A stretch of 64,000 nucleotides of DNA from Gammaproteobacteria bacterium (GCA_004796365.1 QZLE01000074.1:12028-76027), one strand, 5' to 3'; positions 16,848 through 34,988 are shown, counted from the stretch's first letter. Numbers and translations: made by a program. The notes: generated from the sequence alone by a model not told the origin.

Positions 16848-17938
16848 ACCCTGAAGATAACGCTAGTCCTGAGAATATGAAAGTTGAAGCCCTGGATAAT
16901 GAAGCTGGAATAATTAATCCGGATACATGTCATAGTGCGACCACGGTAGATGAAGAGAATCCAAATGAGTCCTCGGTGATTGATATTTCTGCAATTACTC
17001 AAAAAGCTGTTGCGATAAAAAACGAGATTCATAAAGTACTGGTTGGACAGGATGACGTCGTAGAACAGGTTTTGATAGCACTATTTGCTGCTGGCCACGT
17101 CTTAGTTGAAGGTGTTCCAGGACTTGGTAAGACTTTGCTGGTAAGAGCTTTGGCACAAACCTTTGATGGTAAACACGGAAGGATACAGTTTACTCCAGAC
17201 CTAATGCCTGCAGATGTTACCGGGCATGCAATTTATGATATGAAATCAGAGCAGTTTAAGATTCGAAAAGGGCCTGTATTTACAAATATTTTATTAGCAG
17301 ATGAGATAAATAGGGCTCCAGCAAAGACGCAAGCTGCGTTGCTAGAAGTTATGCAGGAGTTCCAGGTTACGATCGAAGGGAATAGCTTTTCTATGTCACG
17401 TCCATTTGTTGTGCTCGCAACGCAAAACCCCGTTGAACAGGAGGGAACCTACCCATTGCCGGAGGCACAGGTTGATAGATTCCTATTAAAAGTTCATATG
17501 TCATACCCGACCGATGAAGAGGAGCGTCAATTAGTTGCGAATGTCACTTCAAACAGTTTGGCAAGTACACTTGATGTAGATACGATTGAAAGTATCGCCA
17601 ATAAAGATGATATTCTTGAAATTCAAAAAGCAGTTGCCCAGGTTCTAGTGGACCAGCGAGCTGTAGAATATGCAGTAAACATTGTTCGAGCCACTCGTGA
17701 CTGGGGAGGTATCTATTTGGGTGCAGGACCAAGGGGGAGTATATCACTAATCAGGGCTGCCAAGTCATATGCAATGCTTAACGAACGTGACTTCGTAACC
17801 CCAGATGATATCAAACATGTAGCTCTTCCTGTTCTGCGTCACAGAATCACCCTTACCGCAGACTTTGAGATTGAAGGCTACACTGTTGATAACGTTCTTT
17901 CTTCAATTATTCAAAAAACTCCGGCACCGAGAGATTAA
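16844..17938 (+). CDS. MoxR-family AAA+ ATPase
   Basis: 364 aa with Walker A GVPGLGKTLL, Walker B ILLADEINRAPAKTQAALLEVMQE and the sensor region LATQNPVEQEGTYPLPEAQVDRF. It carries a roughly 60-aa acidic N-terminal extension. ATGA overlap with the upstream stop. Confidence 0.9.
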   Translation: MNPEDNASPENMKVEALDNEAGIINPDTCHSATTVDEENPNESSVIDISAITQKAVAIKNEIHKVLVGQDDVVEQVLIALFAAGHVLVEGVPGLGKTLLVRALAQTFDGKHGRIQFTPDLMPADVTGHAIYDMKSEQFKIRKGPVFTNILLADEINRAPAKTQAALLEVMQEFQVTIEGNSFSMSRPFVVLATQNPVEQEGTYPLPEAQVDRFLLKVHMSYPTDEEERQLVANVTSNSLASTLDVDTIESIANKDDILEIQKAVAQVLVDQRAVEYAVNIVRATRDWGGIYLGAGPRGSISLIRAAKSYAMLNERDFVTPDDIKHVALPVLRHRITLTADFEIEGYTVDNVLSSIIQKTPAPRD

Positions 17939-19242
17939 TGCGACCGACTAACTTTCTATTATATATATTGCTTGTTTGGGTCGGAATTGCCTTTGCCTCA
18001 TCGCATGAGCTTGTATCTACTGATGTTTGGCAATTTTTTGGTATCTGTCTGATTTTTTTATCATCCTTAAATATTATTTTTCTTTACCTTATAAAAAAGC
18101 CACAAATTTCAAGAAAGGTCAACACCACATTGCCGGTAGGTGTTAAAAGCATGGTGTATATGACCGTTAGCAATATGTCTAAAAGAACAATTAAAGTTAA
18201 ATTAACCGATCACGTTTCACAACAGCTTAACCCCCAAAACGATGTCATAATTGAAACTATAAAAGGAATGCATGGGTGTACTGCAAATTATTCAATTGAG
18301 CCTATCTCGCGTGGGAATTTGCAGTTTTACCGAGTTGAGATTCTCTTATCTACGCCTTTTTCCCTATTTAGTATTAAACGCATGATTGATCTGCCCCTCG
18401 CTGTTCGGGTTTATCCAAATTTCTCTGAAATCACTAAATATACAATACTCGCGACAGATAATAATATTAGCCAGATGGGCATCAAAAAACGACAAAGACG
18501 TGGTGAGGGAATGGAATTTCACCAGCTACGTGAATATCGCCAGGGGGATTCATTACGCCAACTTGACTGGAAAGCAACGTCAAGGCACAAAAAACTAATC
18601 TCAAAAGAATACCAGGATGAAAGGGATCAGCAGGTTGTTTTTCTGATAGATTGCAGTCAACGCATGCGCTCTAAAGATGGTGAAATGAGTCACTTTGATC
18701 ACGCTTTGAATTCGATATTACTATTATCTTATGTAGCCCTAAAACAGGGAGATGCTGTTGGGTTTCACGCTATAAATGGTATTGATAGATCTTTGTCACC
18801 ACGAAAGAGTATAACTTCAGTCAAAAGCATTCTTAATTCTGTGTATGATCTTGAACCGACCCTATCCCCGCCGGATTTTATAACTGCAGCAACGAATTAT
18901 CTTAAAACTGCAGAAAAAAGATCGCTTATTGTTATTGTCACTAATGCGTGTAGTGAGGATACTCAGGAGCTAATTACAGCGATAAACATGCTGCGCAAAA
19001 ACAATCTTGTTTTAATTGCCAACCTTAAAGAAGAGTGTCTTGAAATTACTTTTGAAAGCGATATAAATAGCTTTGACCAGGCACTTATTTACGCTTCTGC
19101 TCATGAATATATGTATTACCGAAATAAGGAATTCTCATCTATTAGAGCCACAGGCATACAGTTTATTGATGTAATTCCTCAAAAAATGCCAGCGGCAATT
19201 GTTAACAGGTATCTTGATATCAAAGCATCATCCCAGCTTTAG
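17938..19242 (+). CDS. DUF58-family protein (vWA-like fold) with two N-terminal TM helices
   Basis: 434 aa. It has EFHQLREYRQGDSLRQLDWKATSR, the hallmark DUF58 segment, followed by QVVFLIDCSQRM (MIDAS-like position). TAATG overlap with the moxR stop. Confidence 0.8.
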   Translation: MRPTNFLLYILLVWVGIAFASSHELVSTDVWQFFGICLIFLSSLNIIFLYLIKKPQISRKVNTTLPVGVKSMVYMTVSNMSKRTIKVKLTDHVSQQLNPQNDVIIETIKGMHGCTANYSIEPISRGNLQFYRVEILLSTPFSLFSIKRMIDLPLAVRVYPNFSEITKYTILATDNNISQMGIKKRQRRGEGMEFHQLREYRQGDSLRQLDWKATSRHKKLISKEYQDERDQQVVFLIDCSQRMRSKDGEMSHFDHALNSILLLSYVALKQGDAVGFHAINGIDRSLSPRKSITSVKSILNSVYDLEPTLSPPDFITAATNYLKTAEKRSLIVIVTNACSEDTQELITAINMLRKNNLVLIANLKEECLEITFESDINSFDQALIYASAHEYMYYRNKEFSSIRATGIQFIDVIPQKMPAAIVNRYLDIKASSQL

Positions 19243-19386: not shown

Positions 19387-22300
19387 ATGAATAAAGCTGG
19401 CTGCCCATCAATTTCTTTTAAACAGGCTCACATATATTTTGCCCTGATTTATACCATTTTATGCAGTTTTAATGCATCTGGCTTTGCATTGCATGATTCT
19501 CAGGAAAGATACATTATTTCTCCAGAGGCGAAATTATTTGAAGATGCTGATGGCATTAGTTTTCAAGCAGTGAGGAACTTACCAGCCACTTCTTTTAAAG
19601 CTAATGAGGTTGATTCTGTTAGCATTGATGATAGCAGCAAATTTTATTGGATTAAGTTTCAGATAAAGTATTACTCAAATTCACCCAGCCATTATCGAAA
19701 TTGGTTTATGGAAATAGCAGCACCATCGCTTGATATTCTGGATATTTATTTCATTGAGAATGGTAATACAACCTCACACCATTTGGGGGATGATAGGCCA
19801 TACAGGGTACGCCCAGTTCAGCATGGTAATTATATAATAGATTTTAGAACCCATTCAAAATACGAGACTATTGCCTATATTCGTGTAAAGAATAGCATCT
19901 CTACTAAATTGCCAATTCGAGTTTGGTCACATCAGGCTCTTTTTTCTGAATCACAAGTACTGCAATATCTGGCAGGAATTTGTTATGGCATTTTGTTGAT
20001 AATGGTTATATATAACTTGGCAACTGGAATAACCATAAAAGATAAATGCTATACATACCTGGCAATTTATATCTTGACAGCATTTGTCTGCCTAATATCC
20101 TATGATGGCTCTGCCAGGCAGTTTCTTTGGCCCAATAGCCTTTGGTGGGAGAGCAGGGCATTGTTTTTTTGGGAGTGTTTAGTAGTCTTTTGGGGTATAC
20201 AGTTTTCAAGAAACTTTATAGATTTAGAAAACAACTATCCAATGCTTGTTAAATCTCTATATTCAATCCAGTTTTCTGCCGTACTGTGTGCAATAGTCTC
20301 AATAATAATCCCGATGAATATGTTCAGTATTTTTATGGTCTTTGCATATTCAATAATCACATTTTTATTTATGATACCGGTCGCTAAGCATGCCCATAAG
20401 TCAGAAAAGCTGTTCTTCATTTTGGCTTGGTTGCCTTTATATGTTGTCACTATAGTTTTGATAGCCGGGAAAATTGAGCTTTTCGATTTCAATATTAATT
20501 CCATCAATAAAAGATATTTGTATTACCCACTTCTGACTGCACAGTGCTTGCTTTTGTCATTAGCTTTAACCCGCAGATACAATGCAATAAAAAATAGCAA
20601 AGAAAAAGCAGAGCAATACGCTCTTGGCTCTCTACAAAGGTATAAGGATTTATTTACTAACTCAACCGCCGGTATGTTTGAGATTAGCTATAACGGTAAG
20701 GTGTTATATGTAAACCCACAAATCCTGCAAATCCTTGGCTATGACTCAGAACAAGAACTGTTGAAAAATGATAACGCACTTGATACCAGTCTATTTGTTA
20801 ATGCTGCGGATAGAAAGCGTTACTTAAGGCTCCTATTAAAAAACGGACGTGTAACAAATTTTGAATTTCAATTTAAGAGAAAAAATGGAGAAATTGCCTG
20901 GGGGCTTGTTTCCAGTTGCCTGGTAACGGATTCAGATTCTACTGAATATGTGGTCAGTAAACCAAATATAGAAGGATCAATAGTTGATATTACTGCATCC
21001 AAGGAAAAAGAGAGCATTGAAAAGAGGCTTATTGAAGCGGAAACATCAGCTAACGTAAAATCTCAGTTACTTGCAAGCAGCAGTCATGAACTGCGCACCC
21101 CAATGAATGCGATAATTGGCTTTACGTCATTATTGCAAAAAACTGAACTAGATGAGAAGCAATTCAATTATTCTGAAAAAGTAAGGATTGCTGCGAAAGG
21201 GTTGTTAAGGCTGATTAATGACATCCTTGATAACTCTAAACTAGAAGCTGGTGAGATGGAAATTGAATCCGTCAACTTTAATCTAGATAAACTACTAAAT
21301 GAAGTAGTTGATATGTTTGCAGAGCCATTCAATGAGAAAGGGATAGAGTTGATACTCTTGAAGAAACCCGATGTACCTGTCGATTTAGTTGGTGACCCAC
21401 TGCGCATAAATCAGATCTTGATAAATCTAATCAACAATGCAATGAAGTTCACATCTGAAGGATATGTCGCGGTCACTATTGAGCATATTCCAGGTCATGA
21501 TGATGGTATTGATCTTTATTTTACAGTAAGTGATACAGGCGCCGGAATCGTTCCTGAAAGATGCGAAAGAATCTTTGATCCATACCAGCAGGCAAATTCA
21601 TCTGTGGCAAAGCTATTTGGCGGAACAGGGTTAGGCCTTAGCGTCTGTAAAAATCTGATTGAAAAAATGGGTGGGCAAATAAACGTTAAAAGCGCTGTAG
21701 GTCAAGGTTCAGAATTTATGTTTAGTATGCACCTTGGTATACAGCAGTTTGTAGGTAATGAAATTGAAACTTACGAGGAATTAGCTGGTAAAACCGCTTT
21801 TATTATTGATAGTAACAAGCTAGCCGTTGAGCAGCTTAAGGATGAGTTATCAAAATTTAAAATTAACTCAGTTTCTGCATTCAGTGGCGAAATGGCCCTA
21901 CAAAGGTTGATATCTCTTGGTGAAGCAGATCAATATGATTTTATTATTATTGAAAGAAATCTTGTCGATGCCCCAGGAATAAATATTATTAAAGAACTAA
22001 AGACTGACTCATCAACATCTAAGATACCGATTGCGCTTACATCCAGAACTGGATTTAATGATCTTTCAGAAAGGGATCGTAATTCGGGAATTAATGAACT
22101 CCTGGTCAAACCAATCAAAAGTAATAACTTAATTAAGACTTTAATAAGTATTTTCAATTTAGACTATGTTCCGCCAGTACAAGATGAAAATGAACATAAT
22201 GAATTAATTGGACTATTCAAAGATAAAAGAATACTGCTTGTTGAAGACAACGAGCTTAATCAAGAATTATTTACCGAGTTATTAGCTGGATCTGGTGCCA

Positions 22301-23016
22301 TTATCGAAATTGCAAAGACTGGGGCAGCAGCTATCGAGACAATCAACAAATCCGTATTTGATATTATTATGATGGATATTCAAATGCCAATATTAAACGG
22401 GATTGAAGCAACTAAAATTATAAGGAGAGAGCACAAAGAATTCGCTGATATCCCGATCATAGCCCTCACAGCAAATGTTTTGGAGTGTAATATTAAAGAG
22501 TATAGTGAGGCAGGTATGGACGGATTTATACCCAAGCCAATTGATTTTGCAGATCTTATATCGTCCCTAAAACAGTGGCTAAACATAGATAATAACGCCT
22601 TAATCTCTGAAACCAATAAAGAATCTGATGCTGTGTTAACTTGCCAATTACAGCAATCAGATACTATTGATCTTGCATCTGGATTAAAAAAGCTTGGAGG
22701 GAATAAAAAGCTGTATTATAAAATCCTGAATGACTTTGTAGATACATATAGACGTGAGAAAGAATCACTGTTTATCCTATTAAATGACAAGGACACTGAA
22801 ACTTTAAGTAGAAAGCTACATTCAATTAAAGGTATTAGCCTAAATTTAGGCCTTGATAATTTAGGTGAGATAGCTAGATCCGCTGAGCTGATAGTAAAAG
22901 ATGCTGGGTTAGATAAACAGAATGATTTTGAAAAAGCGCAAAGCCTCATTGAAAACTTCTATCAATTGCTTGAAGATGTTGCAGCTGAGCTAGATAAACT
23001 CCACATACTAAAATAG
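19387..23016 (+). CDS. 7TMR-DISM-type hybrid sensor histidine kinase (periplasmic DISMED2-like domain, 7 TM, PAS, HisKA, HATPase, receiver-like domain, REC, Hpt)
   Basis: 1209 aa. An N-terminal signal/TM is followed by a roughly 170-aa extracytoplasmic domain and then seven hydrophobic helices (aa ~195-400). PAS segment FTNSTAGMFEISYNGKVLYVNPQ; H-box SSSHELRTPMNAI; G-box [13 protein letters not shown]; REC DIIMMDIQMPILNG; Hpt LHSIKGISLNLG. Confidence 0.88.
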   Translation: MNKAGCPSISFKQAHIYFALIYTILCSFNASGFALHDSQERYIISPEAKLFEDADGISFQAVRNLPATSFKANEVDSVSIDDSSKFYWIKFQIKYYSNSPSHYRNWFMEIAAPSLDILDIYFIENGNTTSHHLGDDRPYRVRPVQHGNYIIDFRTHSKYETIAYIRVKNSISTKLPIRVWSHQALFSESQVLQYLAGICYGILLIMVIYNLATGITIKDKCYTYLAIYILTAFVCLISYDGSARQFLWPNSLWWESRALFFWECLVVFWGIQFSRNFIDLENNYPMLVKSLYSIQFSAVLCAIVSIIIPMNMFSIFMVFAYSIITFLFMIPVAKHAHKSEKLFFILAWLPLYVVTIVLIAGKIELFDFNINSINKRYLYYPLLTAQCLLLSLALTRRYNAIKNSKEKAEQYALGSLQRYKDLFTNSTAGMFEISYNGKVLYVNPQILQILGYDSEQELLKNDNALDTSLFVNAADRKRYLRLLLKNGRVTNFEFQFKRKNGEIAWGLVSSCLVTDSDSTEYVVSKPNIEGSIVDITASKEKESIEKRLIEAETSANVKSQLLASSSHELRTPMNAIIGFTSLLQKTELDEKQFNYSEKVRIAAKGLLRLINDILDNSKLEAGEMEIESVNFNLDKLLNEVVDMFAEPFNEKGIELILLKKPDVPVDLVGDPLRINQILINLINNAMKFTSEGYVAVTIEHIPGHDDGIDLYFTVSDTGAGIVPERCERIFDPYQQANSSVAKLFGGTGLGLSVCKNLIEKMGGQINVKSAVGQGSEFMFSMHLGIQQFVGNEIETYEELAGKTAFIIDSNKLAVEQLKDELSKFKINSVSAFSGEMALQRLISLGEADQYDFIIIERNLVDAPGINIIKELKTDSSTSKIPIALTSRTGFNDLSERDRNSGINELLVKPIKSNNLIKTLISIFNLDYVPPVQDENEHNELIGLFKDKRILLVEDNELNQELFTELLAGSGAIIEIAKTGAAAIETINKSVFDIIMMDIQMPILNGIEATKIIRREHKEFADIPIIALTANVLECNIKEYSEAGMDGFIPKPIDFADLISSLKQWLNIDNNALISETNKESDAVLTCQLQQSDTIDLASGLKKLGGNKKLYYKILNDFVDTYRREKESLFILLNDKDTETLSRKLHSIKGISLNLGLDNLGEIARSAELIVKDAGLDKQNDFEKAQSLIENFYQLLEDVAAELDKLHILK

Positions 23017-23118
23017 TAATTTGAGTTAATATAAAGACGCAATTCAATAGTTAGTGGTGATAAAATGCCACCACATGAATGCGTAATGGCATTTAAGAAT
23101 AGAATATTTGTTTTAGCC

Positions 23119-24291
23119 TTATACCACTGTTAACAGCATATAACCTGAAGAAAATCTGCCGCTTTCAGGAACAAAACACAATAGTCTTTCTCCTGCTTTC
23201 AGTTTTCCAGAATTAAATAACTCATCAAGAATAATATATATTGATGCCGAACCAGTATTTCCTTTGGAGTTAAGATTGGTAAACCACTTCTCTTCTGGAA
23301 TCGGATAATTCATCTCTTCCAGCTTTTCTAGGATTTTAGATCTGAAATATTCTGAAGATATGTGAGGTAGAAAATAGTCGATATCCTCAGGCTTGAGTCC
23401 CCTTTTTGCAATGACTTTATTGATGGTTTTTTCAATACAGTAATCAACAATGTTCTCATTGAGCAATTTTACATCTTGCTTGATAGCCATGATATTGTCT
23501 GAATACCATTCCTGATTGCTGAATTCACGCCAACCTACTAATGAGCCATCTTCCTGCTTTTGTGCGCCGGTATACATGCATGTCTCTATCTCATTGGCAT
23601 ATGAGTAGATATCAATCCATTCGATTTTTAATGACCGCTTACCCTTATTAGGTGTATTTTCTATTAAAACTGCACCAGCTCCATCTGAAAGCATCCAGCG
23701 TAAAAAATCTTTTTCAAACGCTAGCTCAGGTCTTTTATCTAGGTTATTAACCTTTTCTTCAATCTCGCCTTGATAGTACTCACCCTTAAAATGAGGTGAT
23801 GCTGCCTCAGATCCAGTAGCAACAGCATTTTCATGATCACCACTTAGAACAGATAGGTATGCATACTTAAGAGAGGTAAGACCCGCAAGGCATATACCAG
23901 CAGTTGAGATAACTTCACAAGGAGGATTTTTAAGTTCACCATGCACCATTACTGCATGACCTGGATTCATCTGGTCAGGCATTGTTGTACCGGAAGAAAG
24001 GCATTCAATTTCATCAACTGAAAACGAATCGCCTTCCAGGTTCTTAATGGCAAGCGCTGCAAGTTCAGCATTGGTATAAACAGCCTGCCTAGTTTTAGGG
24101 TCAAGTACATAGTACCTAGTCTCAATGCCATTGCTTTTAAGAATTATTTTTTTAGCTCTTGATGGTTTACCTCCAACCATTCCTAAAATATTCTCCATTT
24201 CATCATTGGAGACGGGGTCGTTGGGCATAAAGGCCGCAACATTTGTTATATATGCACTTATAGTATTATCCATTGATATTATCCATTTCAA
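23119..24291 (-). CDS. FabH-like beta-ketoacyl-ACP synthase III family protein, DarB-like
   Basis: 390 aa with a KAS III Cys-His-Asn triad in the contexts TAGICLAGLTS, FLPHISSEYF and KGNTGSASIYI. It overlaps the 3' end of the upstream DarA-like gene; the alternative start ATG 24273 would give an 8-nt overlap. Confidence 0.75.
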   Translation of the reverse strand: MKWIISMDNTISAYITNVAAFMPNDPVSNDEMENILGMVGGKPSRAKKIILKSNGIETRYYVLDPKTRQAVYTNAELAALAIKNLEGDSFSVDEIECLSSGTTMPDQMNPGHAVMVHGELKNPPCEVISTAGICLAGLTSLKYAYLSVLSGDHENAVATGSEAASPHFKGEYYQGEIEEKVNNLDKRPELAFEKDFLRWMLSDGAGAVLIENTPNKGKRSLKIEWIDIYSYANEIETCMYTGAQKQEDGSLVGWREFSNQEWYSDNIMAIKQDVKLLNENIVDYCIEKTINKVIAKRGLKPEDIDYFLPHISSEYFRSKILEKLEEMNYPIPEEKWFTNLNSKGNTGSASIYIILDELFNSGKLKAGERLLCFVPESGRFSSGYMLLTVV

Positions 24292-25240
24292 TTTTGTTCA
24301 TATTGAAATTATCAGAACCAGATGGCGCCTCAAAATATATCGCTTCTTTGCTTTTATTCTTCTTATTATTATATGACAAAGATATTAAAAATCTTATTAG
24401 CATAGGGATAGGCACCACTATAATTATCATTATTGTTAAGTATACCGCAAAAAGTAACAAAAAAGGGTAGCGAAGTATTGATTTCCGGGGCGCAATGAGC
24501 CTTAATAATTTTGACCAAACTTTAAATGCCCGGTGTCCAGATTTTTCACTAAAGATAAGTTTTTCATCAACCTCTGCAGCCTTATAACCTTGCAGCATAG
24601 ATTGGGATTTTAAATCTTTCTCTTCTTCGAAGCCCTTGATAATAGCACGCCCGAATCTCTGAGCATCCTTGATATCTTTAGGAGATATTCCAGGTTTAGG
24701 AAATATGCCGAATAGCGAATTTTTCTTACCTGTTAACAACCATCTTGTGACAGTTATGAAGTTTGCTATTGATCCCCCTCTGTCAACCAATACGGCGTTA
24801 TCTATATGTATTGCACCCAGGTCTAGTAATAATTTCTTCACTTTTTCCTGAGCCATCAACCACATGTTTCTGCAGCCAATAAGTGTAATTACCGGGGTAT
24901 CTTTAAACACCTTGGTAGCATAATCACTCTGCAAAAGTGCAGTAGCAGGTAGGGAGGGGGAGAGAAACCATACCTGATAGGCAAATATAATTAGGTCATA
25001 CTTTTGAGTCGGGGACTTAGGCTGATTAAGCGGAGGAGCATCCAAGGCAATACATTCAGGAAAAACATCAAAGAAACGAAAAAAACCCCATGGAAACTTG
25101 AACTCTTCTTGTACTGATATCTCTTCAAAAAAAAGTTCAATATCGCCAATATCGATTAGCGGAGCCGTAACCGAATCAACAACATCCTTCAGCTGTCCAG
25201 ACTGACTATAGTAAAAAACCAATATTTTACGTTTTTTCAT
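24266..25240 (-). CDS. DarA-like protein (dialkylresorcinol-condensing-enzyme family), flavodoxin-like N-terminus with C-terminal TM helices
   Basis: 324 aa. It has MKKRKILVFYYSQSGQL, YQVWFLSPSLP and LIGCRNMWLMAQEKVKKLL. These motifs match my recollection of DarA proteins encoded next to a FabH-like DarB. The family call has not been verified by search. Confidence 0.5.
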   Translation of the reverse strand: MKKRKILVFYYSQSGQLKDVVDSVTAPLIDIGDIELFFEEISVQEEFKFPWGFFRFFDVFPECIALDAPPLNQPKSPTQKYDLIIFAYQVWFLSPSLPATALLQSDYATKVFKDTPVITLIGCRNMWLMAQEKVKKLLLDLGAIHIDNAVLVDRGGSIANFITVTRWLLTGKKNSLFGIFPKPGISPKDIKDAQRFGRAIIKGFEEEKDLKSQSMLQGYKAAEVDEKLIFSEKSGHRAFKVWSKLLRLIAPRKSILRYPFLLLFAVYLTIMIIIVVPIPMLIRFLISLSYNNKKNKSKEAIYFEAPSGSDNFNMNKIEMDNING

Positions 25241-25263
25241 TATCTGACTTATTCAGCCCACAG

Positions 25264-26496
25264 TTAAAATCTGTAAGAAGTTTGCAGCATTATCATCTGC
25301 CAGTCTTTATGTAAGCTTCCGTTTTGCATTGAATAGATGAAATCTTTCATTGGAATCCATCCTGTACCTTCAACATCATGAAATTCAGCTCTAATAAGTA
25401 GAGAGTCAGAATAGTGCCATCCTAAACCAAGTACCCAGTTCTTTGCATAGAATGAGTGTGCAGGATATCCAGTACTTGCCTGAAGTCTAGCACCGTCTTT
25501 ATCGTTCTTATCTATATAGAGCACTCCATGACGCAGCATCAGCTCCCACTTTGGAACAAAACGATATGTGGATTGAAGGTAATATGATAGACCTTTTGTA
25601 TCCTGATCGGGAATAGGGGGTAGAAGGTTTAGAATTTTATTTTTTGTTGGTACGTATTCACCTACAAACTTCCATTTGTCAGTATTATATTCGGCAGATA
25701 GAAATTTTGCAGAAGTAGAAACTTCTGTTTCAGGAAGTATTCCATAACCTAAATTGCTATTGTTTATCTTGTATGCAGTGTAGCCATACGAAAGCCCGAT
25801 CCTAATTCTACCTGTATCGTGCTCATATAGAAGTTTTGCAACTCCTGTTTCACCATCTTTAATATCTCCAATGATATATCCTGGCGTTGCCAGAAGCTCT
25901 TTAACCGCTTCAGTGCTAGGATCTTTATTTGAACCAAGCAATCTAAAAGATAGAGAATTTGAAGACCAGCTGCGCATAGCAAATAACTCGAAACCATCAG
26001 TTGAATACATCCAATCCCTATATCTTTCAAGATACATTGATTGCGGAACTAGAATTCCTGGACGTGTAAATGCTACGTCTCTTGTTTCGTTATAAAATCC
26101 CTGAGGAGCTTTGATACGACCCGCTCTAACCCCTAATGACCAATCAACATCGTTTATGGCTGTGTAGGTTATAAAACCGTGGTCTAGCTCAATAGACCCA
26201 TCATCGCTTTTGCCGGCCTTTCTTGAAAGTAATGATGCTGAAAGTTGAAAATTTCTTAGAAAAGTAGTCGAGAAAAGAAATTCAACTTCTCTATAGTCAA
26301 GGCTAATATCATCATCGCTTTCGCCAAAGAAGTTATTGTTTGTAGTATGAATTAGCGATTGGCTTATATAACCGTCCCATCGAAAGTTTGAAAAAACTTC
26401 GTCTGCATTTACAGCAGTTGGTAGTAGCATCGTTACCACAAGGCTAAAAGCTAATTTTTTCTGTTTCTGATAGTTTCTATGCATAAGTTTATCCAC
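25264..26496 (-). CDS. Outer-membrane beta-barrel protein (porin-like, family unassigned)
   Basis: 410 aa. It has the signal peptide KLAFSLVVTMLLPTAVNA/DE, alternating-hydrophobicity strands throughout, and a C-terminus LQTSYRF whose terminal aromatic residue is typical of BAM substrates. Confidence 0.7.
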   Translation of the reverse strand: MDKLMHRNYQKQKKLAFSLVVTMLLPTAVNADEVFSNFRWDGYISQSLIHTTNNNFFGESDDDISLDYREVEFLFSTTFLRNFQLSASLLSRKAGKSDDGSIELDHGFITYTAINDVDWSLGVRAGRIKAPQGFYNETRDVAFTRPGILVPQSMYLERYRDWMYSTDGFELFAMRSWSSNSLSFRLLGSNKDPSTEAVKELLATPGYIIGDIKDGETGVAKLLYEHDTGRIRIGLSYGYTAYKINNSNLGYGILPETEVSTSAKFLSAEYNTDKWKFVGEYVPTKNKILNLLPPIPDQDTKGLSYYLQSTYRFVPKWELMLRHGVLYIDKNDKDGARLQASTGYPAHSFYAKNWVLGLGWHYSDSLLIRAEFHDVEGTGWIPMKDFIYSMQNGSLHKDWQMIMLQTSYRF

Positions 26497-26577
26497 TTAA
26501 GTTCCCTTTAAATCCTGGCTATGCTTATATAGCCTTTTAAGCATGCGTTAGAAAAATGGTCAAAGAGCTTCATTATA

Positions 26578-27021
26578 CTAGCGCATCGTTGTTCGTTTTA
26601 CATCTAATTCTACCCGTTTCACAGAATTAAGGTCGTTATCATAAAGTCTGTCTGTATAACCAATCGCACCCGGAGTTCGCTTGAGAATATCAATCATCTC
26701 TTCCTTGGTTTTAGCAACAATGGGCGGCTGCCCAAGACCTGAATACGTAACCCTATCCCACCCACCTTTTAGCTGATGAGGGAATATATTAAGGATCTTT
26801 TTACAAAACTCTTTATGTACTGTGGAGTTATTAGGCATTGTTACTACAGTAACTGGAAGGCCGTCAGGCCATTGTTTAAGCCTGAGGCTAAAGATTGCCC
26901 TTAACTCTCGATTAGTTAAGTATTCAAACTTTTGAGACGATGACGATTTGTTGGTGATTATATCTATTGCATAAGCACATGGTGAAAAAGCAATACACAA
27001 GACAAAGCATAGCAAAAGCAT
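26578..27021 (-). CDS. Small periplasmic PstS-like (type 2 PBP-fold) protein
   Basis: The track ORF extends to 27132, but ATG 27021 gives MLLLCFVLCIAFSPCAYA/IDI, a clean signal peptide (148 aa). It has REL(R)AIFS..WPDG, GAIGY and the PBP-like segment PHQLKGGWDRVTYSG. Confidence 0.55.
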   Translation of the reverse strand: MLLLCFVLCIAFSPCAYAIDIITNKSSSSQKFEYLTNRELRAIFSLRLKQWPDGLPVTVVTMPNNSTVHKEFCKKILNIFPHQLKGGWDRVTYSGLGQPPIVAKTKEEMIDILKRTPGAIGYTDRLYDNDLNSVKRVELDVKRTTMR

Positions 27022-27461
27022 ATTTCCAGCTCTTTTTGCATAATTTTCAATTGCTTGCGTTAATAACTTAATGTACAAAATTGAAAGATCCACGGTTACG
27101 AGCAATAAATACTCAATATCATTACCACACATGAAAGACAGATATTCAGCGGTCGTACATTATACATTAAAAATCTGTTGTAAAAAGGGGCATTACCAGA
27201 TTCTGATAAAGTAATTGCATACACTAAAATAAAATGCCTGTTTCAAATATTCTTGAGCTAAGTGTATCTGCTTGTTCTTACGACTAAATACAGTCCACAA
27301 TGGATAAATTCAGCCTTTTTTTCGTGAAAAGACCTGTTTATTTAATTATTTAGCAAACTTGATCACTTTTTTACCAATTTACCGTCCAAGATTGTGGTAT
27401 GGAGGGGTATATCAACTATATTTGTAATAGGAGATTGGCATCAAAAGTTATTGCAGGGAAT

Positions 27462-28067
27462 ATGATTATGACTGATCAGAATAACAATAGTAATACAAAT
27501 GACTATATGTCCGGTTCAAACGCCGAGTCGCCCGACCTAGACTGGAGTCAAGTCAGGGAAACCGTTTTTATTCTCAATCTTGCAGTTGGACAAATTCTTG
27601 CCTCTTTAAAAGATGGAAACGAAAGCATAGGTACCCTTTCTGATAATTTTATAAATATGGCAGGTGAGCTCACTGAGGTAGAACTGCTTGCAGGAAGAAT
27701 TTCTATTGATGCCGATCAACATATAAATACAGAGAGTAAAAAGCAAATCATAGAGCATTGCAAATCAGTTGCAGGATCCGTACAAAAATCAATAGTTACC
27801 TTTCAGTTTTATGATCGATTATGCCAAAGGCTTGAAAGAGTTTCAGATGGGTTAAACGGTGTTGCTGACATCATCGGCAATCCAGCAAAATTATACAACC
27901 CATTTGAGTGGAATAAATTACACCAGAAAATCCATACCAGCTATAGCACTGAAGAAGAGCGGCAGATGTTGGAGCTGATAAAAAATGGCTGTTCAGTTCA
28001 TGATGCTATAGAAAAAGTTGTTACGCAATCAGATATTTCTGATGAGGATTCAGTAGAGTTATTTTAG
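27462..28067 (+). CDS. CheZ-like protein (putative aspartyl-phosphate phosphatase), first gene of the phosphorelay operon
   Basis: About 201 aa from ATG 27462 (AGGGA Shine-Dalgarno upstream; the track ORF starts at 27399). It has [11 protein letters not shown] with D-x3-Q (Asp codon at 27813), which mirrors CheZ QDFQDLTGQ. The C-terminal tail is acidic and ends in hydrophobic residues ([12 protein letters not shown]), like the CheY-binding tail of CheZ, and the size is similar to CheZ. Confidence 0.45.
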
Positions 28068-30184
28068 TGGATAGTATGACAAACAAAATGCCAAAGATAC
28101 TTATAGTAGATGATCAGGAAATGAATATCTACGCCATGGAACAGGTGCTAAAAAATGTTGGCGCAGAGATCTTCACGGCTAAATCAGGTAATGAGGCTCT
28201 ATCCAGAATTCTTTACCACGATTTTGCACTAATACTGATGGATGTTCAGATGCCCGAAATGAACGGATTTGAGGCTGCTGAAATTATCCGTTCAAATGAT
28301 GAGACCAAATACACCCCTATCATATTTGTTACAGCAATAAACAAGGAAGAAAAATTTGTTGCACGAGGATACCAAACTGGCGCAGTGGATTATTTATTTA
28401 AGCCCGTTGATCCGGATATTCTTATAGCCAAAGTTAGCTTCTTTCTTGATTTGGCAAATGCGCATAATGAACTCAAAGAAAAGCAGTCGGAGCTGGAATT
28501 ATTAAATAACAAACTCATTGAAGAAAATGAAAGCCGTAAGAGAGCCGAAGAGGCTGCTCTAGAAGCAAGCAAGACAAAAAGCATGTTTTTAGCAAATATG
28601 AGTCATGAAATCAGAACCCCAATGAACGGGGTTATTGGTATGATAGGGCTCTTGCTTGATACGAACCTGTCTGATTTACAAAGAGAGTATGCGGAAGATG
28701 TTAAATTTTCTGCTGACTCATTACTTGGTATTATTAATGATATTCTCGATTTCTCAAAGATTGAAGCTGGCAAGCTAGACCTTGAGGTAATTGATTTTGA
28801 TTTACGAAACGCAATAAGTCACATTGTTTCTACTCTCAGACACAAAGCCCACGAAAAAGGTATTGCGATTAATTCTGAGATAGACGATCAAATTCCTTCT
28901 TCAATACGTGGTGACCCAACTAGACTAAGGCAAATCTTGCTCAACCTAACCGGGAATGCCATTAAGTTTACTCAGAAAGGCAGTGTAACGATCCAAATTC
29001 ATCTGGTTAGTGAGTCAACAAAAGACGCGACCATACGTTTTAATGTTATTGACACTGGAATAGGCATTGAAAACGAGCGACTAGGTAAGATTTTTGAGTC
29101 ATTTACCCAGGCTGATGACTCCACCACTAGGCAGTTTGGCGGTACAGGTCTTGGTTTAACAATATCTAAGCAGCTTATAGAGTTGATGAAAGGCTCTATT
29201 ACAGTTGAAAGCAAGATAAATGAGGGTACCAAATTTTCCTTTGAAGTAATGCTGGAAAAACAAAAGTTTGGAAGTAATGGTATTAGCCCGATTACTACTC
29301 AGCATGAGGATGATCAGCGAGCAGAGCAAAATACAATCGTACTTGATGATCAAAAAGTTGATAATCTTGGGACTGAAATTGTCGGCAAGAAGATTCTGAT
29401 TGTGGATAATGACCAGAAAACCCTAACAAATGTATCGACATTGCTTTACGATTTGGGATGTAATCCGCTTGTTACGCAAAGCGGAGCTGAAGCTATTGAT
29501 ATACTCATGACAACAGCGGCTAATAACGGCATTGATGTTGTATTAATTGATTCAATTCTATCTGACATGGACGGCTCTGATCTCGGCCAAAAAATACGGG
29601 GTATGAAACTTACATATACTCCTAAGCTAATAATGTCTACTGCAGTAGGGAAAAGAGGAGAGGGGGCCAAAGCTAAGGAGATAGGTTTTAGCGGTTATCT
29701 TTCAAAGCCAACAACGTCATCTCAATTGCATGACACAATCAGTGCGGTTATCCAAAGCAAAGAGAGCGACGATTCGTTTATTACCAAATACTCTTTTGCT
29801 GAAGCACAAAAAAGAGACGCCAACATTCTTCTTGTTGAGGATAACCAAATAAATAGAACTGTAGCTTCCGTAATAATCAAAAAATTTGGCTGCATGGTTG
29901 ATACTTCTACAAATGGCGAAGAGGCCATAAAGGCGCACCTTGAAAAGGATTATGACATCATACTAATGGATTGTGAGATGCCTGTAATGGATGGCTTCGA
30001 AGCAACAAAAAGCATTAGAGCAATGGATAATCATAAGAAGGACATACCAATAATTGCAATTACTGCATATGCAATGGAGGGAGATAGAGAAAAGTGTATT
30101 TCTGCGGGAATGGATGATCACATCACAAAACCTATTACAGCAAACGTATTAACAGGCCTGCTTGAAAGGTGGCTAAAAAAATAA
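28067..30184 (+). CDS. Soluble hybrid histidine kinase with architecture REC, coiled coil, HisKA, HATPase, REC, REC
   Basis: 705 aa. N-terminal REC ILIVDDQ...[15 protein letters not shown]...LFKP; H-box [14 protein letters not shown]; G-box [13 protein letters not shown]; middle [28 protein letters not shown]; C-terminal [28 protein letters not shown]. No TM or sensory domain is seen. The GTG start shares a base with the upstream TAG; ATG 28076 is an alternative start. Confidence 0.9.
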
Positions 30185-32847
30185 TGGCAGCAGAAAACGC
30201 AGAAAATACAAACCTTGTTATTGAAATGCTAAAGCATGAGATTGAGTATCTCAATGTTACAGTTCGCCTCGTAAAAGGTGAGCTCGAAAAAGAACGCAGC
30301 CACCGTAAAATTTTACAACTTCAACTTAAATCTGGTTCCATAGATACTGATCAACTTGAGTCTGATATAGAATCTATGAATGCTCCTGTTCATAGTAAAG
30401 ATATGTATTCTTTATTAGAACTAGAGGAACTTCTAAAGTATTTTGAAGAAAGCATTTCAGGTCTTTCTTCTGTCGATGGTTTCTTGTTCAATATAATTGA
30501 TTCAAGCAAGGAAAACCTAATTTGTGAACGCATCAAATTACCGCCAGCATATTATGGTGTAGAAGCCATGTATCGGAATTATAAATTCCCTTTAAGGCAG
30601 TTTGATGCAAACGTACATGCCTTTCGAGATCAGGTAACAATTTCAGTCGATGAGTCAAATCTAGACAACTATTCAGAAAGCACAAAAACACGATTTGAAC
30701 GCTGGAAAATGGAAAAGATGTTGGTAATTCCGATTATTCCTAATGATCGAGTCGACCCAATCGGCACACTTATGGTTTTTTCCCAGGATGGAAATATTGA
30801 TTCAAATTCAGTAAATTACATCGAAAAGCTACTACAAAATCTTCTTGTTCCGCTTAGCAACGCAATAAAATTTACAAGCCTTAAACGCAGAGAAAATAAT
30901 ATCAAACAGATAGAGGAAGAGCATATGCGTTTTTTGAGGTTTGTAGTTGAAATTAATAATCTAAATAATGTAGAACTCATTAGAGAGATAGTCTGCGAAG
31001 AGTTTTTATCAAGCTTCAATTTCGATGTTGCTTCACTTTTTATTCAGGAAGACGACAAATTAAAATGTTGTAAAACTGTCGTAAGTGAAGATGAATACAA
31101 CGATATTCAATCACAATGGACAGATTATTTTTGCAATGTTGACTATGAACTGAGTCTTAAAGACGGGAGTCCACCAACCTGTTTTTTGCAAAATGCGATT
31201 CAGCACATACCTGATACTGAAGAAATCATTCATCTTCCAATGTCAAAAATAGATCGCGACATTATTAATATAATGGGCGGCACGCCACATACAATGCTTT
31301 GCCTCCCTATTAGAGAACACTACCACCCTGTAGGTGTATTATGGATGTTTAGCTTGAAAAATCCTGTAAAGCTTACAGATCAACAACTAAAACTAATCGA
31401 GCTTTTATGTGTATTTGTGGGTGCAGAGATGGCGAATGCACAACTTTATACAACTGTTGAGCGCCAAAATATTGAGATTGAAGCGCTAAATCTTGACATG
31501 AGTGCTACTGTAAATGAACTTGAAGAGCACAAAAATAATCTGCAGTATCTGGTTAACGAAAAGACATATGACATAACGCTTGCAAAAAACGAAGCTGAAA
31601 GGGCCAATGCTGCAAAGTCAGAATTTTTAGCAAATATGTCTCATGAGCTTCGCACACCTCTAAATAGTATGCTAATGCTCACAAAGTTGATATTAAACGA
31701 TGATGAAAAAAACTTAACCCCTAATCAACTCGAGTATGCAAAAATAATTTACGAAAGTGGACAGAATCTTCTTCAGCTAATTAACGATATTCTCGATATA
31801 TCAAAAGCAGAATCTGGAAAGATGCAGATTGATCTGCTGAAGATTAATCTAATTGATCATCTGAATAGTATTATAGATATGTACAAAATATCAGTACATA
31901 AACAGCAGTTGTTCCTCAGACTCGATTTGAAGCAAAACATACCAACCTTTATTTATTCTGACCCACAGCGTTTAGAGCAAGTTATTGTGAATTTATTATC
32001 CAATGCAATGAAATTCACAAATAAAGGCGGCATTACAATCACTATATATTCACCTTTAAATAGTGAACTCTCAGAAGTACTGCCCGTTAAAGCAAGCACT
32101 GAATTTATTGCTATAACCGTTGAAGATACTGGTATAGGCATTTCGCCTGAAAAGCAAAAAAATATATTTGATGCGTTTATGCAAGCAGATGGATCAATAA
32201 GCAGAAATTATGGAGGAACAGGACTTGGTCTAGCTATCAGCAAAGAAATCTGCACATTGTTAAATGGAACAATAACTTTAGAATCTTCTGAAGGGCAGGG
32301 GAGTAAATTTACCGTATACTTACCTGTTGATCCCAAAGAAGCAAGTAAAGCCGATTCAGAGAGCGATGACCAATCGCTACTTTTAGCAACCAAGGAGCAG
32401 GTCGAGAAAATTAAAATTGAAGATATAAGAAAAGAAATGCCTGAAATCAATAAACCAGAGCAAGAATCAGAAAGTGAAGAGCAGAAAGAACAAATAATTA
32501 CTGGTGAGCATATCGATGGCCTTCCTATACTTATACTAGATAATGATATGCGCAATGCCTATATATTAGCCAATCAGTTACGACAAAAAGGGATGCATGT
32601 TGAGCTTGCTGATAGCGTGGAACTTGCAATTAATAAAATTAATGAAATTGAGTACATACACATAGCGATGATAAAGGGAATTGGTAATATTAAAAAAATT
32701 AAAAGTAACGTCGCTGAGGACACTATAATAATAGGCACTGATAACAACAACGACTTGAAGCATATCCAGGAAAATGGAGCCAGTATAAGCCTACAATACC
32801 CAGTTAACCCAGAAGCATTAGTTGCTGAATTACACCAGATGGATTAA
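30184..32847 (+). CDS. Cytoplasmic tandem-GAF histidine kinase with a C-terminal pseudo-receiver
   Basis: ATG 30184 overlaps the upstream stop (TAATG); the track ORF starts at 30169. It has an N-terminal coiled coil and two GAF-like blocks homologous to those in the 8006 and 60591 kinases. H-box ANMSHELRTPLNSM; G-box GGTGLGLAISKEI. The C-terminal ILILDND...IHIAMIKG domain lacks the phospho-acceptor Asp. Confidence 0.88.
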   Translation: MAAENAENTNLVIEMLKHEIEYLNVTVRLVKGELEKERSHRKILQLQLKSGSIDTDQLESDIESMNAPVHSKDMYSLLELEELLKYFEESISGLSSVDGFLFNIIDSSKENLICERIKLPPAYYGVEAMYRNYKFPLRQFDANVHAFRDQVTISVDESNLDNYSESTKTRFERWKMEKMLVIPIIPNDRVDPIGTLMVFSQDGNIDSNSVNYIEKLLQNLLVPLSNAIKFTSLKRRENNIKQIEEEHMRFLRFVVEINNLNNVELIREIVCEEFLSSFNFDVASLFIQEDDKLKCCKTVVSEDEYNDIQSQWTDYFCNVDYELSLKDGSPPTCFLQNAIQHIPDTEEIIHLPMSKIDRDIINIMGGTPHTMLCLPIREHYHPVGVLWMFSLKNPVKLTDQQLKLIELLCVFVGAEMANAQLYTTVERQNIEIEALNLDMSATVNELEEHKNNLQYLVNEKTYDITLAKNEAERANAAKSEFLANMSHELRTPLNSMLMLTKLILNDDEKNLTPNQLEYAKIIYESGQNLLQLINDILDISKAESGKMQIDLLKINLIDHLNSIIDMYKISVHKQQLFLRLDLKQNIPTFIYSDPQRLEQVIVNLLSNAMKFTNKGGITITIYSPLNSELSEVLPVKASTEFIAITVEDTGIGISPEKQKNIFDAFMQADGSISRNYGGTGLGLAISKEICTLLNGTITLESSEGQGSKFTVYLPVDPKEASKADSESDDQSLLLATKEQVEKIKIEDIRKEMPEINKPEQESESEEQKEQIITGEHIDGLPILILDNDMRNAYILANQLRQKGMHVELADSVELAINKINEIEYIHIAMIKGIGNIKKIKSNVAEDTIIIGTDNNNDLKHIQENGASISLQYPVNPEALVAELHQMD

Positions 32848-32849
32848 AG

Positions 32850-34988
32850 ATGTCAGAAGATAAGGTCAAAGTTCTAGTAGTAGATGACATTGAAGCAAAC
32901 CTGTTTGCTATGCAGCAGGTGCTAAAACCAATTGATGGTATAGAGATAATAACAGCTTCAAATGGCCGAGATGCATTAGATATTCTCAATGAACAAGAAA
33001 TTGCATTGGTCTTTTTGGATGTTCAGATGCCCGAAATGAATGGCTACGAGGTGGCCAGCAAAATTCAGGAGCTAGAAAACTATAATTGTGATGTGCCGAT
33101 AATACTGGTAACAGCTATAAATACAGAGGAAGAGTTTATATCAAACGGTTATCAAAGTGGTGCAATCGATTATATTTCTAAGCCAGTTAATAATGATATT
33201 TTAATAAAAAAGACTAAGGCGTTTGTTAAGTTATTTGAAAATAAGAAAAAGCTTGAGCAAGCAAATAAGCAGTTACAAATACTTTCAAACAAAAACGAAT
33301 CAATTCTGACCTTTGCAGGTGAAGGGATATTAGTTATATCTAAAGATGGTGCAATAATGCTTTCAAATCCCGCATCACAAAAGCTACTTGAGGTTGAGGA
33401 ATCCGAGATCATTGGCATGTCGATATGCGATATTATAACTACAGATGAAACAAAAAAGTATGGCTGGAATGACTCCGTACTTTACAAATGCGCTAACAAC
33501 AATAATACCTACCATATTGATAACACAGAATTTAGAAAAATAAATGGTCAGCGATTTCCGGTCGATTATACATTTTCACCTATAAAAGATGATCCAGATA
33601 CAGCAGGTATGATAATCTTCCGTGATATATCAATAAGAAAACATGCTGAAGAACAGCTAATAAAATTAGCAAGATATGACTCATTGACAGGCCTTGCCAA
33701 CAGATCTGTATTTAAAGATTCACTTGTCAGATCAATGGCTCGCGCGGCACGCCAAAAGCAGATGGTTGGTGTGATGTTTTTAGATCTTGATCACTTCAAA
33801 GAAGTAAATGATAAACACGGACATACCATCGGAGATCAGTTACTTATCAGTGTTGCCAATAGGTTACAAAAATGCATCAGAACAAATGATATGGCAGCAC
33901 GACTAGGTGGCGATGAGTTTGCAATAATTTTGGATTTGATCTCTTCATCTGATAATGCCGCCCATATCGCGCAAAAGATTATTGATACCGTTGGCGGGCA
34001 GCATGAGCTAGATGGAATATCAGTTTATATCAGCCCAAGCATCGGTATTACAATCTATCCAGGCGAAAGTGAAACCCCGGAAGATATCCTTAAATCTGCC
34101 GATTCTGCGATGTATCGTGCTAAAGAAGTTGGGCGTAATAATTATCAATTCTACGATAGAAAGATGTATGAAAAGGCCAGAGAGCGCGCACATCTGGAGA
34201 ATGAACTCAAAATTGCTACGATGCGTAATGATTTTGAACTATATTATCAGCCGCAAATATCGTCTAAAACCGGGCAAATATGCGGTTTAGAGGCGTTGCT
34301 AAGGTGGCCGCATTATGACTTTGGTATGGTTTCACCAGCTGTATTTATTCCAGCGGCTGAAAGCACCGGTCTCATCACGACAATTGGCGAATGGGTGTTG
34401 AGAACTGTATGCCAGCAGACACATGAATGGGTTGAGAAAGGTATTACAGGGCTTGATTTAACCGTTGCTTTAAACGTATCTACCAGGCAATTGCGAGATG
34501 GCACATTTGCAAAAATGGTAGAGGAGGTCATTAAAACATCACACCTTGAACCAAATCAGGTAGAAATTGAAATAACAGAAAGTACTATTATGGACGACCC
34601 TGAAACAGCAATTGCCGAATTGCAAAAGGTCCATGATCTAGGTGTTAAGATTGCAATGGACGATTTCGGTACTGGCTTTTCATCCTTAAGCTATTTGAAT
34701 ATGCTACCAATAGACACAATTAAGATAGACCAGAGTTTTACGAAAGATATCGGAGAAGATCCGAAAGATGAAGCAATAGTAAAAGCCATTATTGGTTTGG
34801 CGCATACCTTAGGGTTAAAGGTGATTGCAGAAGGTGTTGAGGAAGAATATCACGTTAATTTCTTGCGCGAAAACGGATGCGATATCTTGCAAGGTTACTT
34901 CTATAGTAGGCCGGTAGCTGTCGATATTATTACCGAGCTACTTACAGAAAATGACAGTGACCATAACAACACAGTACCAAAAAGTTAA
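32850..34988 (+). CDS. Response regulator with REC-PAS-GGDEF-EAL architecture (c-di-GMP turnover)
   Basis: 712 aa. [28 protein letters not shown]; PAS; GGDEF with RTNDMAARLGGDEFAIIL (intact I-site and A-site); EAL with EALLRW, EITES and DDFGTGFSS. Confidence 0.93.
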   Translation: MSEDKVKVLVVDDIEANLFAMQQVLKPIDGIEIITASNGRDALDILNEQEIALVFLDVQMPEMNGYEVASKIQELENYNCDVPIILVTAINTEEEFISNGYQSGAIDYISKPVNNDILIKKTKAFVKLFENKKKLEQANKQLQILSNKNESILTFAGEGILVISKDGAIMLSNPASQKLLEVEESEIIGMSICDIITTDETKKYGWNDSVLYKCANNNNTYHIDNTEFRKINGQRFPVDYTFSPIKDDPDTAGMIIFRDISIRKHAEEQLIKLARYDSLTGLANRSVFKDSLVRSMARAARQKQMVGVMFLDLDHFKEVNDKHGHTIGDQLLISVANRLQKCIRTNDMAARLGGDEFAIILDLISSSDNAAHIAQKIIDTVGGQHELDGISVYISPSIGITIYPGESETPEDILKSADSAMYRAKEVGRNNYQFYDRKMYEKARERAHLENELKIATMRNDFELYYQPQISSKTGQICGLEALLRWPHYDFGMVSPAVFIPAAESTGLITTIGEWVLRTVCQQTHEWVEKGITGLDLTVALNVSTRQLRDGTFAKMVEEVIKTSHLEPNQVEIEITESTIMDDPETAIAELQKVHDLGVKIAMDDFGTGFSSLSYLNMLPIDTIKIDQSFTKDIGEDPKDEAIVKAIIGLAHTLGLKVIAEGVEEEYHVNFLRENGCDILQGYFYSRPVAVDIITELLTENDSDHNNTVPKS

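Follow-up and report, generated by a model that had tools for sequence, protein, structure and literature searches.

The enzymes DarA and DarB, known from darABC of Pseudomonas chlororaphis, from Chitinophaga pinensis and, as StlC/StlD, from Photorhabdus, share a condensation and aromatisation chemistry that is established for their family (PMC6836626), and here we describe a pair of genes of this type that lies behind genes for a porin and a miniature periplasmic binding protein (mini-PBP) at positions 23119 to 27021 of a 64,000-nt stretch of DNA from a gammaproteobacterium (GCA_004796365.1, QZLE01000074.1:12028-76027; this whole stretch is called the window below). Other described systems also resemble parts of this locus. 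In cyanobacteria, the bartoloside (brt) and putative microcarbonin clusters contain DarA and DarB homologues without a dedicated acyl carrier protein (ACP), clustered with envelope genes (PMC6836626). In Vibrio cholerae, the periplasmic binding protein NspS controls MbaA, a GGDEF-EAL enzyme with a periplasmic sensor (PMC5646818, PMC8079147). Finally, there is phosphate uptake with PstS and the porins OprP/OprO.

How does the window compare with each of these? As in DarAB/StlCD, its DarA-family gene stands immediately upstream of a ketosynthase (KS) gene and overlaps it, and the ketosynthase shares 57% identity with StlD, keeps the Cys, His and Asn residues and passes the family model NF005293. 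The window differs, however, in having neither darC nor darS/darR nor a nearby LuxR-solo receptor of the PauR type, in a KS that falls under the strict DarB model, and in the position of the pair, which is behind the porin and mini-PBP genes rather than in a cluster of its own. The brt and microcarbonin clusters, with which it shares the lack of an ACP and the company of envelope genes, encode tripartite DevBCA exporters and tailoring enzymes, whereas the window has a porin and a half-size PstS and no tailoring enzymes. The likeness to NspS-MbaA would lie in the widespread module to which the porin and mini-PBP belong (described below), which similarly appears to pair a periplasmic binding-type protein with a periplasm-sensing membrane GGDEF-EAL protein; NspS, however, is a full-size PotD-like protein with no accompanying porin gene, whereas here the binding protein is half-size, PstS-like and always accompanied by a porin, and the window lacks the dCache_3 sensor. 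With the phosphate system the locus shares a mini-PBP fold that best matches PstS and a porin with Porin_O_P relatives and OprP as its top TMq match, but the mini-PBP amounts to about one lobe, there are no pstCAB genes and the porin of the window misses PF07396.

We consider it somewhat probable that the locus is a composite operon of two separable modules, darAB and a PBP-porin pair, and not an apparatus for resorcinol export. Its four genes, all present in a listing of open reading frames (ORFs), are:

26578..27021, minus strand: mini-PBP gene, 147 aa from the ATG at 27021 (184 aa from an alternative ATG at 27132)
25264..26496, minus strand: porin gene, 410 aa from a GTG, with C-terminus SYRF (406 aa from the ATG at 26484)
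24266..25240, minus strand: DarA-type gene, 324 aa
23119..24291, minus strand: StlD/DarB-family ketosynthase gene, 390 aa from a TTG (384 aa from the ATG at 24273, the likely start)

The gaps between them are 81 nt (PBP/porin) and 23 nt (porin/darA), after which darA and the KS gene overlap by 26 nt if the TTG start is used and by 8 nt if translation begins at ATG 24273. A preliminary description of this DNA had reported four minus-strand genes with these gaps and a final overlap, and had read them as a signal-peptide protein of PBP fold, a 410-aa outer-membrane beta-barrel ending in YRF, a DarA-like, flavodoxin-like protein with C-terminal transmembrane sequence and a FabH-like ketosynthase with an intact Cys-His-Asn triad, the last two forming a darA/darB-type pair with no small ORF resembling darC. 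The ORFs are present where it placed them, and these readings are borne out by the profile, structure and neighbourhood data presented below.

That the PBP-porin pair is a module independent of darAB is evident from its distribution. Scanning metagenome contigs with the porin alignment gave 80 loci (33-38% identity), which together with 4 from protein look-ups made up 84 porin loci (L085-L168). A mini-PBP homologue is encoded upstream of the porin in 79 of these, the remaining 5 being cut off upstream, and in most loci the same-strand gene after the porin encodes a protein of ~950-1000 aa. When 35 non-redundant full-length proteins from this post-porin position were scanned, a dCache_3 domain was present in every one and GGDEF plus EAL domains in 34, usually with PAS; one of the 35 is a histidine kinase. 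Because the PBP gene precedes the porin gene in all untruncated loci and a sensor gene typically follows it, we recognise a canonical three-gene unit, consisting of mini-PBP, OprP-like porin and dCache_3-PAS-GGDEF-EAL membrane sensor, which is widespread. Examples of this unit are found at L087 5538-10176 and L092 6541-11139, with a mini-PBP of ~150 aa and a sensor of ~970 aa. We found no description of a PBP-porin-GGDEF-EAL unit in the literature searched, although one may exist elsewhere.

Neither darA nor darB is present in any of the 80 metagenome loci and, among 80 genome loci with darAB, a PBP and porin accompany the pair only in the close relative L005. That the barrel and PBP belong specifically with dar genes, as the preliminary description implied, is thus not supported, as the pair occurs independently and its usual partner is a sensor. 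In the window, darA begins 23 nt past the porin stop, which is the usual start position of the sensor gene, and a hidden Markov model of the N-terminal domain of the canonical sensors detected no dCache_3-type sensor in the window, its best match having an E of 1.1. A 712-aa response regulator (RR)-GGDEF-EAL protein encoded in the neighbouring divergent operon is only 32-38% identical to the cytoplasmic part of the canonical sensors, a similarity that is generic.

What led to the presence of darAB at this position? Four other genomes or populations also have the order PBP-porin-darA-darB, which is therefore a real, inherited arrangement. By DarA identity to the window these four are L169 (75%), L004/L005 (a gammaproteobacterial metagenome-assembled genome, 65%), L170 (63%) and L086 (43%), the porin of L086 being 48% identical to that of the window. 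A syntenic locus, L085 (GCA_041156845.1, 4612-10957), has the PBP and porin genes and no darAB, with a convergent kinase gene 50 nt after the porin, and its flanks are those of the window: a divergent phosphorelay operon, a 7TMR-DISM kinase and DUF58/MoxR genes. Neighbour-joining of concatenated DarA and KS sequences placed all five members of the lineage that have darAB in one group in 190 of 200 bootstraps, which means one acquisition of darAB followed by one loss in L085; independent, convergent insertions of darAB behind the porin are rejected by the same grouping. The KS alone groups L086 with the window lineage in 143 of 200 bootstraps and DarA alone in 9 of 200, a discord that could stem from fast evolution of DarA or from replacement of darA in L086. 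In L086 (7379-9497) DarA is only 43% identical to that of the window, whereas Arcobacter DarA proteins reach 50%. Thus, darAB occupies the sensor slot only in one small marine gammaproteobacterial lineage, represented by five genomes or populations and with one acquisition.

The 324-aa protein has 4493 homologues at E<=0.001, and those that are named are all called "dialkylresorcinol condensing enzyme", matching it with E values of 1e-85 to 1e-94 and 45-51% identity over >94% of its length. Their alignment has 68 invariant columns in common, including those of YSQxGQ, WFLSPS and CRNMW, and the peptides ILVFYYSQSGQL, YQVWFLSPS and GCRNMWLMAQEKVKK of the 324-aa protein correspond to the most conserved motifs of the family. 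No Pfam or NCBIfam model matches the protein, neither collection having a DarA model, and a search of a plasmid collection gave four matches, all labelled "hypothetical protein". As the family profile matches the WrbA-like flavodoxin-fold structure 2mwm (E 7e-5, residues 2-103) and hydropathy reveals one hydrophobic segment at residues 254-291, it is reasonable to describe the protein as flavodoxin-like with a C-terminal membrane anchor. Our survey of the surroundings covered 80 related genome loci, from a genome set with >594 darAB loci, and in all 80 the DarA-type gene adjoins a DarB-type gene, standing directly upstream of it in 79. By its strong similarity to these proteins, the lack of which would have told against the preliminary description, the 324-aa protein is a member of a large DarA-named family and a putative aromatase.

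For its partner, the match to the NCBIfam StlD/DarB family model (NF005293) scored 616.9 bits against a cut-off of 450 and spanned model positions 1-378 of 378, whereas the match to the strict DarB "exception" model (NF053539) reached 528 bits, under the cut-off of 550. The alignment with crystallised Photorhabdus StlD (5gk0; E 5e-148) extends over 379 aa without a gap, and Cys134, His310 and Asn345 of the KS (390-aa numbering) align with the same residues of StlD, which we take to be its catalytic triad. On these matches the 390-aa protein is a StlD/DarB-family ketosynthase.

The window contains no ACP-like ORF (phmmer with Escherichia coli AcpP against stop-to-stop ORFs of at least 40 aa, best E 5.5), and 3' of the KS gene there is no room for one, the convergent gap being only 102 nt. 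This absence had seemed special in the preliminary description. An ACP gene directly after darB is, however, found in none of the 80 related darAB loci, the cyanobacterial clusters are thought to draw on acyl-ACPs of primary metabolism and the ACP-less brt cluster is functional (PMC6836626), and in P. chlororaphis PCL1606 a darC insertion mutant still makes the resorcinol HPR, while darA and darB mutants do not (PMC6403133). The lack of an ACP gene is consequently the rule in the DarAB family and nothing unusual. The preliminary description also knew of no published dar clusters with export or binding-type envelope proteins, but such clusters with exporter genes exist: DevBCA exporter genes accompany the cyanobacterial dar clusters (PMC6836626), and ABC-2 permease/ATPase genes lie within a few kb of darAB in 40-46 of 79 related loci.

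The company of darAB in these related loci (L006-L084) is itself of interest. Within 3-7 kb downstream of darA there are genes for a FabF-like KS (49 loci), an ABC-2 permease (46), an ABC ATPase (40), a 281-aa protein of unknown nature (41) and a ~88-aa protein with a weak PP-binding match (35), so that the wider darAB clade often has both a carrier protein and an exporter nearby. In 55 of the loci darB is followed by a gene for a ~135-aa protein with no Pfam family and the motif DIPQD...SPLEYHMY..RMD (e.g., L007 9093-9503), and then, in 68 darAB loci, comes a ~330-aa BtrH_N plus DUF4872 protein (e.g., L006 4644-5633). In the 64-kb window, tblastn detected no meaningful homologue of the ~135-aa or the BtrH_N/DUF4872 protein.

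The mini-PBP matches PF12849 (PBP_like_2) with 30.2 bits against a cut-off of 27, and the match covers only profile positions 95-192 of 267. In a Foldseek search with its AlphaFold2 model (pLDDT 83) the best matches were all PstS, with TMq ~0.6 and TMt ~0.35. The mature protein has ~125 aa and the PstS target chains 240-320 aa, and because of the TMt of ~0.35 against these chains the mini-PBP is likely to represent roughly one lobe of PstS and not a two-lobe Venus flytrap. It is by no means a rare protein: at E<=1e-10 its family comprises 2784 clusters (50% identity), and lengths among the top-scoring 150 all fall between 117 and 221 aa. In PstS the anion ligands of lobe 2 are, we assume, located at an R...SGT motif; the stretch that we aligned with this motif by eye may read L/M...S-x-L/V-H in the mini-PBP family.

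Assigning the porin to a class depended on a fold search, because a sequence-profile search against the PDB gave noise only. The 410-aa protein has no PF07396 match at E<=0.01. Of its 120 listed relatives, 13 have a match to PF07396 (Porin_O_P); several carry PF07396 or PF13609 and some are named as phosphate-selective porins. The AlphaFold2 model (pLDDT 83) has 16 strands, and its Foldseek matches, OmpT, Omp32, DcaP, ChiP (chitoporin), OprP and OprO, all belong to the diffusion or anion porins. The highest TMq is that of OprP (0.62, with OprO at 0.56), but by E-value OmpT, Omp32, DcaP and ChiP are equally good. As modelled, therefore, the barrel resembles 16-strand diffusion porins of the general or OprP-OprO type, if as a distant member, and in this model it is unlike the FadL, TolC and Lpt lipid conduits and does not belong to a class known to move lipids.

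We infer that the four genes form one co-transcribed unit because they are tightly spaced, the consensus scan detected no terminator-like site at the porin-darA junction, a hairpin follows the KS gene and Rfam has no match, riboswitch or otherwise, in the operon and its leader at E<=1. The start codons are ambiguous in three of the four genes (KS, TTG 24291 versus ATG 24273; porin, GTG 26496 versus ATG 26484; PBP, ATG 27132 versus 27021). For the KS and the porin the shorter forms are the choice of gene callers, and for the PBP the shorter form is favoured by the alignment of homologues, in which the N-terminal extension is unconserved. The N-termini MLLLCFVLCIAFSPCAYA and ...LLPTAVNA, judged by eye, resemble signal peptides. 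The unit is bounded by two non-coding features:

27133..27398, no strand assigned: intergenic region of 266 nt between the PBP-porin-darAB operon and the divergent phosphorelay operon, presumed to be a shared promoter region
23063..23094, minus strand: 13-bp hairpin in the convergent gap past the KS gene, a possible terminator for both converging units

The divergent arrangement around the intergenic region is kept in 6 of 6 lineage loci. The hairpin has a folding energy of -15 kcal/mol (z -3.96; none of 200 shuffles folds equally well), with a weak U-tract, and it is absent from the output of the consensus terminator scan. In that scan the counts were not above those of shuffled controls, being below them for promoter-like sites and within ~1 sd for terminator-like sites, and the promoter-like sites of the intergenic region are only of consensus level and no more than expected by chance.

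The immediate neighbours of the locus are signalling genes:

27399..34988, plus strand: divergent operon encoding a 222-aa protein of unknown nature, a hybrid kinase RR-HisKA-HATPase-RR (705 aa), a GAF kinase (892 aa) and an RR-PAS-GGDEF-EAL protein (712 aa)
19387..23016, plus strand: 7TMR-DISMED2/7TMR-DISM hybrid histidine kinase, 1209 aa, convergent with the operon

The first three genes of the divergent operon are kept beside the PBP-porin genes in 6 of 6 lineage loci, the 712-aa gene being beyond the fetched DNA there. Hydropathy gave no transmembrane segment in the proteins of this operon; the single stretch that it flagged, at residues 642-660 in the 712-aa protein, is part of the EAL domain. 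The only membrane sensor that adjoins the operon is the 1209-aa kinase, a 7TMR-DISM kinase that L004 and L085 share with the window and that L086 and L170 lack. The 222-aa protein that heads the divergent operon (27399-28067, plus strand) belongs to no Pfam family and lacks a transmembrane segment; its conservation is 65-72% in the three relatives compared by tblastn, and a gene for 194-201 aa is found at the same place in all five related loci. Large signalling proteins are unusually dense around the locus (8006-12178, 19387-23016 and 28067-34988, within ~27 kb), including a 1390-aa GAF hybrid kinase with Hpt in addition to the 1209-, 705-, 892- and 712-aa proteins. Further out, an operon at 12260-19242 (plus strand) encodes RDD, SpoIIM-like, 586-aa unknown, DUF4350, MoxR-type AAA_3 ATPase and DUF58 proteins, and its DUF58-proximal part is kept beside the locus where the fetched DNA reaches it (L004, L085, L086 and L170). 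On the other side, 37376-40009 (minus strand) encodes an 877-aa subtilase (Peptidase_S8) with Y_Y_Y/Big_13-like repeats, beside an EamA transporter gene (36174-37055).

How, then, might a composite operon work? In the first module (darA-darB, 23119-25240), DarB would condense beta-ketoacyl and alpha,beta-enoyl thioesters head-to-head to a carboxy-cyclohexanedione, which the membrane-tethered DarA would aromatise and decarboxylate to a 2,5-dialkylresorcinol. As no dedicated carrier is encoded, the acyl donors would come from housekeeping ACP or CoA pools. In the second module (mini-PBP and porin, 25264-27021), the porin would let a small hydrophilic solute into the periplasm, where either that solute or a partner would be bound by the half-PstS protein. 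The pair would, in most bacteria, feed the co-encoded dCache_3-PAS-GGDEF-EAL sensor; in the window lineage the sensor gene is absent and darAB, acquired once, stands in its place, beside a cytoplasmic phosphorelay ending in the RR-PAS-GGDEF-EAL protein.

Several points weigh against this reading. The DarA assignment depends on the annotated names of homologues, the porin of the window reaches no Pfam porin model, and co-transcription is deduced from the layout of the sequence. The chemistry we attribute to the window pair is that predicted from its relatives, and the sensory role of the porin and PBP is likewise presumed from the canonical unit. The genes typical of the clade, those for the ~135-aa and BtrH_N/DUF4872 proteins, are absent from the window lineage, and its product or the fate of that product may differ. 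Moreover, the gene order has been kept across a deep divergence (43% for DarA, 48% for the porin), and the reason could be that a functional link between the modules is under selection, rather than inheritance alone.

Such a link is central to the alternative that fares best, although we regard it as unlikely. It proposes an integrated circuit in which DarAB make an autoinducer, the porin and mini-PBP serve its re-entry and perception, and neighbouring kinases, either the 7TMR-DISM kinase or the divergent phosphorelay or both, pass the signal on to cyclic di-GMP (c-di-GMP) via the RR-PAS-GGDEF-EAL protein. Dialkylresorcinols and cyclohexanediones are signals in Photorhabdus, where PauR senses them (PMC7154725), HPR controls biofilm formation, adhesion and motility in P. 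chlororaphis, phenotypes that are typical of c-di-GMP control (PMC6403133), and NspS-MbaA provides a precedent for PBP-assisted GGDEF-EAL sensing (PMC5646818, PMC8079147). The darAB pair is placed exactly in the usual sensor slot of the module, has its divergent control region in common with a phosphorelay that ends in GGDEF-EAL, and has persisted there in five diverged genomes. Set against this is the retention of PBP, porin and phosphorelay in L085 without darAB, from which it follows that they function independently of a DarAB product. The single acquisition means that there is no convergent evidence, the porin is of the hydrophilic-solute class, the mini-PBP family extends over thousands of clusters with none of the 80 surveyed PBP-porin loci containing darAB, the proteins of the divergent operon have no transmembrane or periplasmic domain by hydropathy, and a link from dialkylresorcinols to c-di-GMP was not found in the literature searched.

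Less likely still is that the darAB product is a structural or protective lipid that stays in the envelope, with a connection to the signalling genes that is only regulatory or accidental. Dialkylresorcinols are building blocks of the pigments flexirubin and arcuflavin in Bacteroidetes and Azoarcus (PMC3992019, PMC3949708), related darAB loci often adjoin genes for FabF-like KS, ACP-like and ABC-2 proteins, and DarA has a membrane anchor, all of which would suit such a role, but the 64-kb window has neither an ACP nor homologues of the ~135-aa or BtrH-like proteins. This explanation also overlaps with the one we favour, the composite of two separable modules, and sequence alone cannot separate the two.

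The least probable of the alternatives is that put forward in the preliminary description, in which the porin and mini-PBP move the lipidic product, a resorcinol or cyclohexanedione, through the periplasm and the outer membrane: the four genes adjoin one another and probably share a transcript, a membrane-tethered DarA would release its product at the inner membrane, and exporters do accompany other dar clusters (DevBCA and the ABC-2 genes mentioned above), but the pair occurs without darAB in all 80 surveyed metagenome loci and in syntenic L085, its usual partner is a sensor and neither a biosynthetic nor a transport gene, the porin is a 16-strand diffusion porin rather than a FadL-, TolC- or Lpt-type conduit, the mini-PBP is a half-PstS in which features of a lipid carrier are not evident, and the operon encodes no inner-membrane exporter.

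We conclude that the darAB pair of the window adds little in itself, being one more member of a family that is thousands strong and in which the absence of an ACP is normal. What is new is the lineage-specific joining of a common biosynthetic pair to a common sensory operon, and this is modest. That a dialkylresorcinol or cyclohexanedione autoinducer is sensed through a porin and a half-PstS protein, and not by a LuxR solo, and that it feeds hybrid histidine kinases and an RR-GGDEF-EAL protein, seems to us very doubtful, more so than retention of the product in the envelope; if true, it would constitute a new quorum-sensing architecture in which resorcinol signals are coupled directly to c-di-GMP and a signal synthase has been swapped into the slot of a sensor. 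The three-gene module leading from the envelope to c-di-GMP (half-PstS, OprP-like porin and dCache_3-PAS-GGDEF-EAL sensor) merits study in its own right. A link between resorcinols and c-di-GMP signalling is possible, and the window lineage is a natural experiment, in which a sensor was replaced by a signal-lipid synthase beside a phosphorelay, that makes the question of dialkylresorcinols and c-di-GMP directly testable with few constructs.

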